Origin: a virus
Strand: one strand, 5' to 3'
Virus record (IMG/VR): IMGVR_UViG_3300000553_000005
Coordinates: 32,001-96,000 of that record
DNA: 64,000 bases
Shown: positions 3 through 63,994 of the stretch, in pieces
How the letters are laid out: each line of letters begins with the position of its first letter
Position numbering within the stretch: position 1 is the first letter of the stretch
Notes under the pieces: model-generated
Seen by the model: only the letters and a program-made list of their open reading frames with translations
Databases searched by the model: none
Told to the model about the DNA's origin: nothing
Translations under genes and position numbers: made by a program

Positions 3-896
3 GAAAGAAAGAATAACGCTAGAAGATGGCCCAAAAATGGTCCAAGGCCCTCTATGTGCAAAGAGGACTCTATAGGATCCGTTAAAACTACTTTAGAGAT
101 AAAAGACTCTTTATTTTATTCAAGGTCTGATGGAAAACAAGAAACAAATCACTCTATAGCACTTTCTAACCCAGTTGAGTTCAACTCCCAGCTACTCCCA
201 TTAGATCCTTATTTTTTGGGACTTTGGCTTGGGGATGGACATAGTGCCAATGTATCCATAACTACTATGGATGAAGAGATTAAGAACTACATTTATAAAA
301 TAGCTGAATCATATGGATTAGAGGTTACAATTAACTCTAATGGTTCTAAAGCCTCTGAATACTCTTTAACTTCTAAACAGCACGGCTCTAAAAAAGGAGA
401 ATGGGGAAACAGCCCTGATAGAAATATCCTTCTGTCTAAATTCAGAGAAATGGGAATCTTAAAGAATAAACACATTCCAGAAATTTACTTGATATCCTCC
501 ATTGATCAGCGATTAGCCTTACTCCAAGGATTGATGGACACAGATGGGGGGTGCCATAGAAGTCGATGTGAGTTTAATAATACTAATGAAAATATAGCAA
601 GGGGCGTTTTCTATTTAGCCGCCTCTCTTGGTCTTAAGCCTTATTGGAATGAAAAAAGAGCAACTTATTACGGAAAAGATTGTGGAACATGTTACAGAGT
701 TACCTGGACTTCTACTAAGCCGGTATTTAGATTAACAAGAAAATTGGCTGAACTTCAGACTACTTCAAAACCTTGTCAAAACAGAAGGTTCATCGTATCT
801 GTAGAGCCAGAAAAAGAGCAAGAAGTTCGATGTATAACCGTTGATAGCCCAGATGGCTTGTTTCTATTCGGAGATAATTTCAATGTAACACATAAT
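3..896 (+). mobile_element. Intein 1 (C-terminal part) with LAGLIDADG endonuclease
   Basis: PYFLGLWLGDG and LLQGLMDTDG endonuclease blocks; block F/G VRCITVDSPDGLFLFGDNFNVTHN followed by Ser at 897. Confidence 0.9.
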
Positions 897-3605
897 AGCG
901 CCCTAGTTTCGGCAATTGCATCCTATAAGCTTTATCGTCTTTTGAATATTCGTTCCCCTCAGGACCATTATGGTTTGATTCCTGGATCTCCCATAGATTT
1001 TACTTTTATGGCCCAGGACACAGAAGGCTCCTCTCGTTTATTTGATAAAATGAAGGAAGACGTTAACCGTGCCCCTTTCTTTGCTCCCTATTTAAAAAAT
1101 ATGACCACAGAGGAAATGACTTTCGTTTCTGATGCTGACCGATATAAAAGAGATATCACTCCTTCAATTACCGTTGCCAGCTTGCCTTGTTTAGAAGAGA
1201 ATGAATTAATATGGACTTCTAAAGGACTAACCCCAATTAAGGACACACAAATAGGGGATTTAGTGTGGGACATGAATGGAAATTTGAAAAAAGTTTTGAA
1301 CAAAACTTACAATGAAGAAAGCCTATTGGCAGTTTCTACTCGTAATTTTAAGGGTGACCCCCTTCTTTTAACCCCTCAACACACTTGTATTTCAGTATCT
1401 AACAAAGAGGCTTTTGAAAAACTTCCATATTTATACAAATGGAATCTCGCTGGAAAAGGGCTTAAAGATTGCTTGAATAATAGCAAACGAGATGATACTA
1501 AGGGTATAGATATCACACTAACAGAGGATTATGCCAGCAAATTAGCTGAGGGGGACTATTTTCTATATCCCCAAATTTCTTTGAATCAAAGAGTGGCCTC
1601 TTCACTTGACAATACTCAAGCAAAGTCACCAGCCTATTTTCAAAAACATTTAGGAGGGAAGCTTTGTGAACATACTTCAGTTAGATGTAGCTCTGTTGAA
1701 CTACCTGTGACAGTTGATTCATGCCGATTATATGGGTTATACATAGCTGAAGGCTCAACTATGGGGAAAGTAGGAAAATTTAAAAATTCAGTTAAGTGGA
1801 CCTTCCATATAAATGAGCAAACCACTTATGCTGCGTTTATTCAACAAACTCTTCAAACGGAATTTGGACTGAACAGCACGTTAATCTTAACTCCTGAGTG
1901 TAATAGATGTGATGTATTCTGCTCCTCATCAGAATTAGCAAGAGGGCTGGCCTTCTGGTTTGGAGAAGGATGCGAAAATAAAGTTGTTCCCAATGAAGCT
2001 CTCTATTGGCCCATCGAATTACAAAAAGCGTTGATCCAAGGGTATTATGAAGGAGATGGGTGTGATAATAGGAGAATTGCTCCAACAGTATCAAAAAAAC
2101 TAGCTTATTCTCTCTTCAATTTATTAATTCAGACTGGACAACGACCGTCAATTCTGTTTCGCCCAGGCTATATAACTAAATATAAACAAAAAGAAGTAAT
2201 TCATAAGGATTCCTGGTATGTAGAAATTTGTAAACAAGATAACCATTGTAGATTTTTTCAAAAAGTTAAGGGAGTAAACTACTATTGGTCAAAGATAACG
2301 GCTATCACTCCTATTGAAAATAAACATCCTGTTGTTGATATTGAAGTAGAGGATACCCATTCTTTCTTAACTAAATTTGCAGTGGTTCACAATTGCACCA
2401 CTAACAAAGTTCGTGGCCCTAGTTCATTCTTATTGGCATTAGACGAGTTCGCTTTCTATAGAAATCAAATTGGAGTTAACTCTGAAGCCATTTATAAAGC
2501 CGCTGCCCCCGCCACCATGCAGTTTAAGGCTGGAGGGACTAGAGGGGGGAAACGAGAATCCATGATTCTCATTATTACTTCTCCTAACGGTAAGATAGGT
2601 AAGTACTATGAACTTTACAGTTCCGCTATGAAAATGGGGAATGATTCTGACATTCTAGCTTTTCGATGCTCTACGGCAGAGATGAATCCTCGTTCTGATG
2701 TAGATTTCTTAAAAAAAGAACATAGAGAGAATCCCGATGTGTTCAAGGCTGAATATGGTGGAGAATTCCTAGAAGCGGCGGAATCTTATGTCAAACTATC
2801 TGTGTTTGAATCCTGTATTGATCAAGAAAGAAAAAATTTCTGTCAGTTTACTCCGGAAACTATAGGAGTAAAATATTTTTGGGGGTTGGATTTAGGTATG
2901 CAATATGACGGAACTGCTTTAGCTGTTTGTCATTGGCAACCTACTTTCGATTTGATTCCTGGAGCTACTTTAGTATATGATTTTATAGATAGAAAAATAG
3001 TAGGAGAAGAAGAGTATTCAAATGTTAAACAATTACCATTGGACGATATCTTACTATGGTTAAAACGCATGAACGGACTCCTACCTTGTTTTAAAGGGGC
3101 AACTGATCAACATGGTGGTTCTATGCTCGTTCAATTATTGGAGAAATATGGAATCAATGGGTTAGAATTAGTTCATTTAACTTCCGGTATAAATTCTCAG
3201 ATGTATTTAACCCTTAAAGGATTGATGGAACAGAAAAAAGCATCATTTCCAGCAGAGAAGAAGTTTATTGATGAAATGAAATTGGTAGAAGCTCATTATG
3301 TTGGAAAATATCAAATAAAAGTTCAGGCCCCAGCAGAAAAAGATGCTCATGATGATCAGGCCGATGCTGTGGCTCTTGCTTCCTGGGTTGCTCAACAATG
3401 GGCTATGAACGAAGGGGCTAGAGAATTTGCAGATATCTTAAGTGGCATAGACCCTGCTAGACTGGCCCGAAATCATGGTCTTATGTCTTTGGGGTTTGAT
3501 CCTAATATTAGTTCTATGGCGGAACTAAAATCACATGAAAGACAGCTTGGTATATTACAGAGATCAAATCTCAATTCCGTTGTTAATCCTTTTAGAAGAA
3601 GATGA
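3..3605 (+). CDS. terL: Terminase large subunit (5'-truncated by window), containing two inteins
   Basis: Frame is open from position 3. Exteins show the Walker B region VRGPSSFLLALDEFAF, coupling motif IITSPNG, FKAEYGGEF, and nuclease motifs WGLDLG and HDDQADA. Lies upstream of the virion genes. Confidence 0.9.
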   Translation, partial: ERKNNARRWPKNGPRPSMCKEDSIGSVKTTLEIKDSLFYSRSDGKQETNHSIALSNPVEFNSQLLPLDPYFLGLWLGDGHSANVSITTMDEEIKNYIYKIAESYGLEVTINSNGSKASEYSLTSKQHGSKKGEWGNSPDRNILLSKFREMGILKNKHIPEIYLISSIDQRLALLQGLMDTDGGCHRSRCEFNNTNENIARGVFYLAASLGLKPYWNEKRATYYGKDCGTCYRVTWTSTKPVFRLTRKLAELQTTSKPCQNRRFIVSVEPEKEQEVRCITVDSPDGLFLFGDNFNVTHNSALVSAIASYKLYRLLNIRSPQDHYGLIPGSPIDFTFMAQDTEGSSRLFDKMKEDVNRAPFFAPYLKNMTTEEMTFVSDADRYKRDITPSITVASLPCLEENELIWTSKGLTPIKDTQIGDLVWDMNGNLKKVLNKTYNEESLLAVSTRNFKGDPLLLTPQHTCISVSNKEAFEKLPYLYKWNLAGKGLKDCLNNSKRDDTKGIDITLTEDYASKLAEGDYFLYPQISLNQRVASSLDNTQAKSPAYFQKHLGGKLCEHTSVRCSSVELPVTVDSCRLYGLYIAEGSTMGKVGKFKNSVKWTFHINEQTTYAAFIQQTLQTEFGLNSTLILTPECNRCDVFCSSSELARGLAFWFGEGCENKVVPNEALYWPIELQKALIQGYYEGDGCDNRRIAPTVSKKLAYSLFNLLIQTGQRPSILFRPGYITKYKQKEVIHKDSWYVEICKQDNHCRFFQKVKGVNYYWSKITAITPIENKHPVVDIEVEDTHSFLTKFAVVHNCTTNKVRGPSSFLLALDEFAFYRNQIGVNSEAIYKAAAPATMQFKAGGTRGGKRESMILIITSPNGKIGKYYELYSSAMKMGNDSDILAFRCSTAEMNPRSDVDFLKKEHRENPDVFKAEYGGEFLEAAESYVKLSVFESCIDQERKNFCQFTPETIGVKYFWGLDLGMQYDGTALAVCHWQPTFDLIPGATLVYDFIDRKIVGEEEYSNVKQLPLDDILLWLKRMNGLLPCFKGATDQHGGSMLVQLLEKYGINGLELVHLTSGINSQMYLTLKGLMEQKKASFPAEKKFIDEMKLVEAHYVGKYQIKVQAPAEKDAHDDQADAVALASWVAQQWAMNEGAREFADILSGIDPARLARNHGLMSLGFDPNISSMAELKSHERQLGILQRSNLNSVVNPFRRR
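1188..2393 (+). mobile_element. Intein 2 (402 aa) with LAGLIDADG endonuclease
   Basis: Starts CLEENELIW; block B LTPQH; LYGLYIAEG and LIQGYYEGDG; ends VVDIEVEDTHSFLTKFAVVHN followed by Cys. Confidence 0.92.
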
Positions 3606-31138: not shown

Positions 31139-31241
31139 GCGCCTATAGTTTAATGGTAGAACAGTTGGCCTATACCCAACCACCGAAAGGTAGCCGCTAG
31201 ATGTGCGGAGTGTCTTGGTTCAAATCCAGGTGGGCGTACCA
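31139..31241 (+). tRNA. tRNA-like RNA, anticodon loop CCUAUAC (UAU register, C33) with 33-nt two-hairpin variable region
   Basis: GCGCCTA/TGGGCGT-A-CCA; canonical D arm; GTTGG/CCAAC; ACC-GAAA-GGT and CCGC-TAGATGT-GCGG; CTTGG-TTCAAAT-CCAGG. Confidence 0.7.
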
Positions 31242-32578: not shown

Positions 32579-32625
32579 ATGAGTCGTTTCACCTGAATAA
32601 CCTCCAACGCTTAACGTTTGGAGGT
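32579..32625 (+). promoter_or_regulatory. uORF MSRFT* plus RBS-sequestering hairpin
   Basis: AGGAG RBS, ATG 32579 to TGA 32596; hairpin ACCTCCAACG/CGTTTGGAGGT (32600-32625) buries the GGAGGT of the next gene. Confidence 0.55.
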
Positions 32626-32630
32626 GCCTT

Positions 32631-32768
32631 ATGGCCCAATCAGCAAAGCACAGCAAGTCTGTGCAAAAGATGTCCGATGAGCAGTTGCAGTCGGTCATCA
32701 GTAGTGGCTCTCTTCTTCACGCTGCGGCTCGTTTTGAGTTGCAGAGAAGGGGGGCTAGCAGGAAGTAA
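32631..32768 (+). CDS. Small basic protein (45 aa; not in ORF track)
   Basis: GGAGGT RBS; MAQSAKHSKSVQKMSDEQLQSVISSGSLLHAAARFELQRRGASRK*. Confidence 0.65.
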   Translation: MAQSAKHSKSVQKMSDEQLQSVISSGSLLHAAARFELQRRGASRK

Positions 32769-33928: not shown

Positions 33929-34046
33929 GCCCGAATAGCAGAATTGGCATATGCAATGGACTTATCGACTCCTCTAATGTAGGTGGATGGAGGTAGTCAC
34001 ACCCAAAATCCATGGTTTGCGGGTTCGACTCCCGCTTCGGGCACCA
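33929..34046 (+). tRNA. tRNA-Leu(UAA) interrupted by a 41-nt insertion in the anticodon (33964-34004)
   Basis: GCCCGAA/TTCGGGC-A-CCA; Leu-type D arm; ATGGA-CTT[41 nt]AAAA-TCCAT; GCGGG-TTCGACT-CCCGC. Confidence 0.75.
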
Positions 34047-34053
34047 ATTTCAA

Positions 34054-34138
34054 GGGTGAGTAGCTCAGAGAAAGAGCATCTAGTGGTGATTGAGTTCATC
34101 TTAGAAGGTCGGTGGTTCAAGTCCACCCTCATCCACCA
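34054..34138 (+). tRNA. tRNA-like RNA with Ala identity (G3.U70, A73), no G18G19, elongated anticodon arm
   Basis: GGGTGAG/CTCATCC-A-CCA; D loop AGAGAAA; TCTAG-[17 nt with GGTGA/TCATC stem]-TTAGA; GGTGG-TTCAAGT-CCACC. Confidence 0.7.
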
Positions 34139-34186: not shown

Positions 34187-34381
34187 ATGACTCAGATAAG
34201 AAGGTCAGTCGAAGAAAAAATGATAGCAAAAGCTCACTTAGAGTTTGAAAAAAGAATCACGTTTGCTGCTAAAGAAGCTATTCGTGTGCGTAGAGCTATG
34301 AAATTATGGGGAATCTTAACTACGATAGGTTCTCTTTGCAGCATTCTTCTTTTATTCTTGTATATTTTTAGTAAAAAATAA
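34187..34381 (+). CDS. Small protein with C-terminal TM helix
   Basis: GAGGT RBS; hydrophobic C-terminus. Confidence 0.6.
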   Translation: MTQIRRSVEEKMIAKAHLEFEKRITFAAKEAIRVRRAMKLWGILTTIGSLCSILLLFLYIFSKK

Positions 34382-63121: not shown

Positions 63122-63623
63122 AACCGTAGTCATCTCTGCCTTCCCCGGCATTGGAAAAACTTATTACCAGCAACATTCTGATTTAAAAGTCCTGGATTCT
63201 GACTCAAGTGGCTATTCTTGGGCTATTATTGATGGAGTAAAATCTAGGAACCCCGATTTTCCAATGAATTATGTTGAACATATCAAGGAAAATATCGGGA
63301 AAGTAGATGTGATTTTGGTGTCTTCTCACAAGGAAGTCCGTAAGGCTCTGGTGAAAGCCAATATTCCTTATGTTATAGTATATCCAGCATCCTCATTAAA
63401 AAATGAATATCTCAATCGCTATAAGAAACGTGGTAATGACGAAGGCTTCATTGATATGATGAAGAAAAATTACAGTTCCTTTATCTCTGAAATTGAAAAA
63501 GAAAATGGATATAGCAAGGTCAGGCTTCATGATGATGAAGCTTATCTTACGGATATTATTGATACTATCTTCGCTAAAGAAACAGAGGCGACTAAACCTT
63601 ACTCTCTTGCTATTTTAGCTTAA
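63114..63623 (+). CDS. P-loop NTPase/nucleotide-kinase-like protein
   Basis: VISAFPGIGKT, DSDSS, RYKKRGN. Confidence 0.7.
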   Translation: MTKTVVISAFPGIGKTYYQQHSDLKVLDSDSSGYSWAIIDGVKSRNPDFPMNYVEHIKENIGKVDVILVSSHKEVRKALVKANIPYVIVYPASSLKNEYLNRYKKRGNDEGFIDMMKKNYSSFISEIEKENGYSKVRLHDDEAYLTDIIDTIFAKETEATKPYSLAILA

Positions 63624-63994
63624 GCTTTGATGATTCTGTATTTGGAAATGTGGATTTCCCCAACGGCTGACCCTTTGGGTTTAGACAGATCCCCAGCCTT
63701 TCCTAAGACAACTTTAACTCCTGCCTGTCCCTTTGCCTTGGAGTTTTCTACAGCGGCTCTTACGGCCTCCTGTAGCACTTCAGAGGGTATTTCAGATAAG
63801 TTCTCAGGGTTCCTAATGACAATATGGCTACCTGGGCAATCTGCGGTATGAAGCCACCAATCATTTGGTTGTGCAATCTCCATAGACAAAATATCATTAT
63901 CAGCGGCTGATCTTCCAATTAGGATAGTGAAGCCGTTGAATTCTTTAGTTTTGTATGGGGCTTTAGCTGTGAGAAAGTGGGAATGAAAATTCAT
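63620..63994 (-). CDS. Stand-alone NFACT-R (DUF814) RNA-binding domain protein
   Basis: ILIGRSAADNDILS...DWWLHTADCPGSHIVI...A...SKA...KPKG..G pattern of the RqcH/FbpA C-terminal domain. Confidence 0.85.
   Translation of the reverse strand: MNFHSHFLTAKAPYKTKEFNGFTILIGRSAADNDILSMEIAQPNDWWLHTADCPGSHIVIRNPENLSEIPSEVLQEAVRAAVENSKAKGQAGVKVVLGKAGDLSKPKGSAVGEIHISKYRIIKA

Follow-up and report, generated by a model that had tools for sequence, protein, structure and literature searches.

The usual view is that phage tRNA genes supplement codon reading, or replace tRNAs cut by host defences. The tRNA shape is also used outside decoding: known non-decoding mimics are the tRNA-like domain of tmRNA, YrlA, viral tRNA-like structures and mascRNA, the last of which, in MALAT1, illustrates the use of a tRNA shape as a processing signal. 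Some phage tRNAs are unusual in another respect, those of the Lak megaphages carrying enigmatic introns (Devoto et al. 2019, PMC6784885). We describe here an 85-nt tRNA-shaped phage gene in which a second helix takes the place of the anticodon loop, together with a group of phage RNAs that have the same D arm. No published account of closed-anticodon phage tRNA bodies was found in the searchable literature.

The stretch of DNA analysed, hereafter the window, is 64,000 nt long and corresponds to bases 32001-96000 of a 139.8-kb IMG/VR phage record, estimated at about 49% of the genome. Genes of this phage are tightly packed and follow the standard genetic code. The terminase large subunit ORF (window 54-3605, 1183 aa) matches terminases at residues 32-288 and 780-1111; between them, a match to a phrog of anaerobic ribonucleotide reductase covers residues 637-782 and suggests that an intein or other insertion is present. 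The same phage encodes, outside the window, a CCA-adding-type nucleotidyltransferase (G000:C1:137512-137856; PF01743, 68.5 bits). An RNA island spans 30.7-37.7 kb: besides seven tRNA-shaped genes, it contains genes for HNH endonucleases and stretches of non-coding sequence. In one of the tRNA-shaped genes there (31139-31241), the anticodon loop reads CCUAUAC (with C33 and the anticodon UAU) and the variable region carries an additional arm of some 30 nt; alternatively, ARAGORN takes this gene for a Leu(UAG) whose intron has 19 nt. The 85-nt element starts 7 nt downstream of a tRNA-Leu(UAA) gene that bears an insert, and a small ORF of 64 codons (34187-34381) begins 48 nt after it. The features are listed below in window coordinates.

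33929-34046, plus strand: tRNA-Leu(UAA) with a 41-nt insert, neighbour of the element and positive control (excision gives the loop CU-UAA-AA).
34054-34138, plus strand: tRNA-shaped gene of 85 nt with encoded CCA (Rfam RF00005, 49.6 bits; cloverleaf as minimum free energy fold, z = -3.1).
34054-34060, plus strand: acceptor 5' strand GGGUGAG, with G3 at 34056 (7 of 7 pairs with 34128-34134, one of them G.U, at 3:70).
34063-34077, plus strand: D arm GCUC-AGAGAAA-GAGC, lacking G18G19, as read in the sequence; signature of the phage closed-anticodon group.
34079-34083, plus strand: outer anticodon stem, 5' strand UCUAG (predicted fold).
34084, plus strand: bulged U at the junction of outer and inner helices (predicted fold).
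34085-34100, plus strand: inner hairpin GGUGA-UUGAGU-UCAUC of 5 bp, hexaloop at 34090-34095, replacing the 7-nt anticodon loop (predicted fold).
34101-34105, plus strand: outer anticodon stem, 3' strand UUAGA (predicted fold).
34106-34110, plus strand: variable loop AGGUC, common to related bodies; a C48-G15 Levitt pair is possible (sequence).
34111-34127, plus strand: T arm GGUGG-UUCAAGU-CCACC (sequence; L056 bodies share an identical 27-nt stretch).
34128-34138, plus strand: acceptor 3' strand CUCAUCC (U70 at 34132), A73 (34135) and CCA (34136-34138), as read in the sequence.
63620-63994, minus strand: stand-alone NFACT-R ORF of 124 aa, about 30 kb from the element (PF05670, 48.7 bits).

The first-pass annotation of this DNA had described an acceptor stem with G1-C72, G2-C71 and G3.U70 followed by A73-CCA, a perfect T arm, and a D loop AGAGAAA without G18G19, and all of these are indeed read in the sequence. 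It had also described the replacement of the anticodon loop by 17 nt containing a second stem (GGTGA/TCATC, loop TTGAGT), which is present in the sequence and recovered in the minimum free energy fold. The score against the Rfam tRNA model is well above the gathering score of 29, with an insertion in the anticodon loop, 19 nt being placed where the model has 9. The predicted fold is a cloverleaf with a lengthened arm (-30.5 kcal/mol, 63% of the ensemble), and none of 200 shuffled sequences did as well. This arm consists of 5 bp, the bulged U, another 5 bp and the hexaloop, so that the stem UCUAG/UUAGA encloses 17 nt; folded alone, it has z = -2.3, and 4 of 200 shuffles were equally stable. All five helices are fully paired, U8, A14, G15-C48 and the T loop are intact, and the CCA is kept. 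No second copy of the inner hairpin was found elsewhere in the contig. A repeated protein-binding hairpin and a complement of the loop were both considered, and neither is present elsewhere in the contig; for an antisense partner, the single weak promoter-like site on the minus strand was within chance. Unannotated sequences in the Thermus phages IN93, phiMa, Tsatsa and Cumys share 91% identity with the 3' third of the element (window 34106-34138), and are probably tRNA-derived attachment sites.

Standard annotators give this element the name of a tRNA-Thr or of a tRNA-SeC/suppressor, and both names are wrong. Run without introns, ARAGORN reports a 'tRNA-Thr(GGU)' whose stem is mismatched; when introns are permitted, the call becomes 'tRNA-SeC(UCA) i(32,10)', with a 10-nt intron. 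We consider both labels as artefacts, because they result from squeezing the element into a standard tRNA model. All single excisions leaving a 5-bp stem and a 7-nt loop were enumerated. None of the products has U33 and R37 together: either a pyrimidine is found at position 37 (xU-UCA-UC), or a G at position 33 (UG-GUG-AC and similar). That this test is able to detect a true insert is seen with the neighbouring tRNA-Leu(UAA), since removal of its insert gives a textbook loop. The best excision product would have a UCA anticodon, and UGA suppression or stop recoding was considered on this basis. Of the 97 ORFs with 150 codons or more, 30 end in TGA, and reading through it would add few codons. 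As the phage thus uses TGA as a genuine stop, a tRNA with a UCA anticodon would be of no use to it. A tRNA-His with anticodon GUG was rejected as well, for G-1 and C73 are both missing.

The 85-nt RNA would therefore be unable to decode, its anticodon not reaching the ribosomal decoding centre, because the distance between anticodon and acceptor is fixed for a tRNA on the ribosome and a helix longer by five pairs cannot bring the loop into place. The earlier proposal that this RNA cannot decode normally is upheld by the extra 5-bp helix formed within the 17 nt and by the outcome of the excision test. The same outcome, with the use of TGA as a stop, goes against a splicing-out of 10 nt that would restore an ordinary tRNA, which had been named as the observation to look for against that proposal.

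We then turn to alanine. Tabulated determinants of bacterial tRNA-Ala are A73, G2-C71, G3.U70, G4-C69 and G20 (PMC9976931), and G3.U70 is enough for charging of minihelices by AlaRS (established finding cited in PMC9976931). The 85-nt element has three of these five determinants, G3.U70 (G 34056 opposite T 34132), A73 and G2-C71. The two minor ones are missing, position 4:69 being U4-A69 and the 3' end of the D loop having no G. The first-pass annotation spoke of a full alanine identity set; this holds for G3.U70, A73 and G2-C71, and is overstated in view of G4-C69 and G20. The host AlaRS would probably nevertheless charge the RNA with alanine, given that G3.U70 suffices even in minihelices.

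To estimate how unusual this pair is, tRNA-shaped genes were collected from about 200 loci of phages and metagenomes, which gave 416 unique genes. All ordinary phage tRNA-Ala among them have G3.U70 (11/11, and A73 as well), as do 2 of 270 other normal, non-Ala tRNAs and 1 of 135 genes with abnormal anticodon arms. A G.U at 3:70 is thus rare in non-Ala tRNA-shaped genes (3/405), and shows no enrichment among abnormal tRNA-likes (1/135 vs 2/270). The acceptor strands themselves are those of ordinary phage tRNAs. Phage tRNA-Tyr usually has CUCAUCC-A-CCA as its 3' strand, opposite GGAUGAG and with A3-U70 (44 contigs), and GGGUGAG is the 5' strand of Vibrio-phage tRNA-Asn, where 3:70 is G3-C70. A single transition, A3-to-G or C70-to-U, leads from either acceptor to G3.U70. 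The identical acceptor stem GGGUGAG/CUCAUCC is also found in L196:1860-1939, in an RNA that has a T arm and lacks a D arm.

The specific alanine claim hangs on one base pair of a singleton gene. No orthologue of the 85-nt element was found in IMG/VR scans for the exact acceptor and D stem, the D arm, the acceptor 3' strand or the outer anticodon stem, nor by the D-arm pattern in JGI metagenomes or GTDB genomes, nor by BLAST against GenBank phages, in searches that may not have included near-identical records. Searches for close relatives through the flanking GH46-like protein or through NFACT-R did not provide one either. The flanking GT9-type protein has homologues at 66-75% identity (P0002-P0004), and its alignment led in IMG/VR to a sole full-length relative, L071 (IMGVR_UViG_3300020710_000049), at 48% identity. 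The syntenic tRNA island of L071 has no counterpart of the element. It contains a complete tmRNA (L071:6169-6570; RF00023, 108 bits, G3.U70), closely followed by a homologue of the small gene that the window has at 32610-32768. The matching place in the window is taken by some 700 nt of non-coding DNA, to which no tmRNA model matches. As these searches gave no orthologue, conservation and covariation lend no support to this particular gene, and the element could be a recent, functionless derivative.

Conservation can be followed in more distant relatives. We defined a same-D-arm group as the tRNA bodies having the D arm GCUC-AGAGAAA-GAGC plus the T loop. Bodies of this kind were found on 41 IMG/VR contigs, of which many measure 200-360 kb, on 41 metagenome contigs, which were searched for long arms only, and on only 6 MAG contigs among 185,579 GTDB species genomes. 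The group is large and almost purely of phage and metagenome origin, and the 85-nt element is a member of it (group loci L016-L056 and L153-L193; for example L023:4261-4343, L166:1354-1435 and L176:6090-6172). Likeness extends beyond the motif used in the search, to the 27-nt stretch shared with L056 and to a common variable loop, and T arms are similar across the group. In its own phage, the element is the sole gene of this body type, the other tRNAs having different D arms.

The anticodon arms of the group were examined in the IMG/VR scan, where a spacer of 20-50 nt was allowed and arm length was thus not selected for. Thirty unique members could be strictly parsed. Canonical anticodon loops were present in only 3 of them; 10 have a 6-bp stem and a pentaloop, with a purine in place of U33, and in the remaining 17 the arm is closed or lengthened, and often carries a GNRA or UUCG cap. 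Non-canonical anticodon arms are therefore the rule (27/30, about 90%). In members with the pentaloop (L025, L027, L031, L042, L048, L050, L056), the loop seems at first to be one of 7 nt, but positions 32 and 38 form a Watson-Crick pair and position 33 is a purine; these members are annotated as tRNA-Arg, Lys, Pro, Gly or Gln. One subfamily, with 11 distinct sequences, follows the consensus GGGGGAG...CAAYG-AUACC-GCAA-GG-AAAA-CRUUG...CUCCCCC-A-CCA, with a GNRA-capped arm. In this GGGGGAG subfamily, the anticodon-stem pair 29:47 is G-C, C-G or U-A, and pairs of the T stem occur as 2-4 types. Such compensatory changes indicate that the closed arm is under selection in these relatives of the element.

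Features of the tRNA 3' end are usually kept in the group, and the alanine mark is not. Among the 58 same-D-arm bodies with abnormal arms, A73 is found in 41 and an encoded CCA in 50; position 3:70 is G3-C70 in 37 of the 58, and G3.U70 in none. No orthologue having been found, conservation of the wobble pair could be looked at in these relatives, where it is seen in 0/58 bodies of the group and in 0/11 of the conserved GGGGGAG subfamily. The absence from the 58 bodies and the lack of enrichment among abnormal tRNA-likes leave room for an incidental G3.U70 in our element. Outside the group, a search in IMG/VR that forced U70-C71-C72-A73-CCA on long-armed genes, and was biased to tRNA-Ala-like D arms, gave five other unrelated tRNA-shaped genes with G3.U70, A73 and CCA (the L057 group, L061, L064/L070, L068 and L069), so that alanine-marked long-armed mimics do recur. 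The L057 group comprises L059, L060, L065 and L066, and the anticodon arms of all five examples are long and closed.

Genes that might be partners of these RNAs were sought in their vicinity. A co-occurrence with NFACT-R genes across phages had been put forward; it was observed in none of the 48 IMG/VR records with same-D-arm bodies or alanine-marked long-armed RNAs (15 of which are at least 90% complete), and in none of 44 control records carrying tRNA-Tyr. For the reverse test, IMG/VR had no close relative of the NFACT-R ORF. Neither tmRNA, SmpB nor PTH2 was found on the present contig, which is about half a genome. A family of proteins of about 150-160 aa is encoded within about 100 nt of same-D-arm bodies (L047:5483-5971, L053:5485-5916, L045:570-1031, L025:14232-14573); one of these four members has a PTH2-like match, which covers nearly the whole profile, is sub-threshold (E = 0.0045) and has no PDB support. 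A PTH2 link was not retained for our phage, whose contig has no such gene. A cytidylyltransferase-like gene (PF01467, 78.9 bits; L166:696-1229 and homologues) lies about 160 nt from a GGGGGAG-type RNA at 11 loci, and a VWA-domain gene is also recurrent beside related RNAs. We consider these neighbours as weak hints to a partner.

The reading that we favour, tentatively and at slightly less than an even chance, is that the 85-nt element is a functional non-decoding tRNA mimic, for which an alanine charge is possible and would not be the purpose of the group. It would be a stable L-shaped RNA ending in CCA, which imitates a tRNA and is unable to read codons. It is probably co-transcribed with the phage tRNA cluster, then cut by RNase P and trimmed at its 3' end like its neighbours. 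The same-D-arm RNAs would most likely act by occupying proteins that bind the tRNA body or the CCA end, and candidates for these are processing or CCA enzymes, a synthetase, EF-Tu, or host toxins of tRNA-directed defence. The RNA might exist for its alanine charge, or the charge might be a side effect of the single change at 3:70. Selection on the closed arm, which speaks for this reading, is seen in the relatives and not in orthologues of the element itself.

An RNA existing to be alanylated would donate or sequester alanine away from decoding, in a tmRNA-like rescue, in Ala tailing on the 50S subunit, in aminoacyl transfer to the envelope, or as a sink for AlaRS or EF-Tu. This would fit the presence of G1-C72, G2-C71, G3.U70 and A73 in an acceptor stem that is otherwise fully Watson-Crick, the rarity of the wobble pair in non-Ala tRNA-shaped genes, the at least five unrelated long-armed genes that carry it in IMG/VR, and the full tmRNA of the L071 syntenic island, with none on the present contig. 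Nevertheless it appears unlikely to us, as the pair is seen nowhere in the group or its conserved subfamily, is not enriched in abnormal tRNA-likes, and can be made by one base change from the tRNA-Tyr acceptor GGAUGAG/CUCAUCC, while G4-C69 and G20 are missing. A tmRNA-like role is further countered by the lack of an SmpB platform, of a match to a tmRNA model and of an SmpB gene. As for Ala tailing, RqcH picks tRNA-Ala via the anticodon loop, which the element does not have, and NFACT-R does not co-occur. A purpose-built, Ala-charged off-pathway mimic in which G3.U70 is selected, be it a minimal stand-in for the tmRNA that the related L071 has at its island or a charged decoy for host toxins that attack aminoacyl-tRNA or the CCA end, we regard as rather improbable. 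The element may also be a decaying or neutral tRNA gene, left idle after an insertion of about 10 nt in its anticodon loop, with G3.U70 as a neutral transition. We hold this for doubtful, while noting that the gene is a singleton in the databases scanned, that several tRNA genes of the island are aberrant, and that the island is in flux, as shown by its HNH homing endonucleases and the mobile 41-nt insert. Decay would hardly have left five paired helices, the CCA, U8, A14, G15-C48 and the T loop intact, nor is it expected that inserted bases form a 5-bp helix which only 4/200 shuffles match, or that the architecture recurs and covaries in related bodies.

The tRNA shape might also serve only as an RNase P and 3'-end signal between tRNA-Leu and the small-ORF mRNA (34187-34381). 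The position of the element, 7 nt after one and 48 nt before the other, suits this role, for which RNase P needs the shape alone; an ordinary tRNA would serve equally, however, and the encoded CCA, the stable long arm and the recurrence of closed arms in large tRNA arrays would be left unexplained, so that we give such punctuation a slim chance. A similarly poor, and if anything poorer, case can be made for an intron-bearing tRNA, from which 10 nt would be removed by the same route as the 41-nt insert of the neighbour, yielding a UCA anticodon (a UGA reader charged with alanine) or GUG. It has in its favour the ARAGORN call with introns, the perfect loop restored in the adjacent tRNA-Leu(UAA), the introns on record in Lak phage tRNAs (PMC6784885), and the L017/L044-type arrays, which hold same-D-arm bodies with a UUUCAAC stretch. 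Yet every excision leaves a pyrimidine at 37 or a G at 33, TGA is a true stop with short read-through, the histidine identity elements G-1/C73 are missing, and the splice points fall outside any bulge-helix-bulge. The non-decoding mimic, with its alanine mark possibly incidental, is the reading retained below.

The same-D-arm group keeps the features needed for processing and those of the CCA end, with the anticodon closed off in about 90% of its members. This suggests that phages have a second use for the tRNA shape, apart from decoding. If the alanine mark proves to function, the 85-nt RNA would be a natural synthetase substrate uncoupled from translation.

Compared with known systems, the 85-nt element is closest to canonical tRNA (RF00005), with which it shares a 7-bp acceptor, a 4-bp D stem, a 5-nt variable loop, a canonical T arm, A73 and CCA, and a score above threshold. 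It differs by the lack of the 7-nt anticodon loop, of the U33/R37 context and of G18G19, and by the 5 bp added to its anticodon arm; D loops similar to its AGAGAAA are found in some annotated phage tRNAs. The nearest bodies are ordinary ones, the tRNA-Asn of Vibrio phages Va1 and pv27 and phage tRNA-Tyr. Va1 tRNA-Asn matches the element in the 5' strand GGGUGAG and the D stem, but has G3-C70 in place of G3.U70; phage tRNA-Tyr matches it in CUCAUCC-A-CCA, but has A3-U70. Insert-bearing phage tRNAs, such as those of Lak and the tRNA-Leu(UAA) of the same cluster, also have extra nucleotides in the anticodon loop that fold as a hairpin; in the neighbour, unlike in the element, excision brings back a canonical loop.

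With the tRNA-like domain of tmRNA (RF00023, including forms without the coding part), the element has in common G3.U70, A73, CCA, the T arm and a non-decoding character. It has, on the other hand, no mRNA-like part and no SmpB gene on its contig, and because of its true D stem (4 bp) and anticodon-type arm it does not offer a tmRNA-type platform for SmpB. No match to RF00023 was obtained on the contig at E ≤ 10, and the permuted form (RF04321) reached 22.5 bits for a gathering score of 47. The YrlA model (RF02553) gave 22.9 bits for a gathering score of 69, on a stretch straddling two genes. The tRNA-like module of YrlA ends in a long Ro-binding helix, whereas that of the element ends in an acceptor stem; what the element would share with YrlA and Y RNA-like mimics is a tRNA-like module serving something other than decoding.
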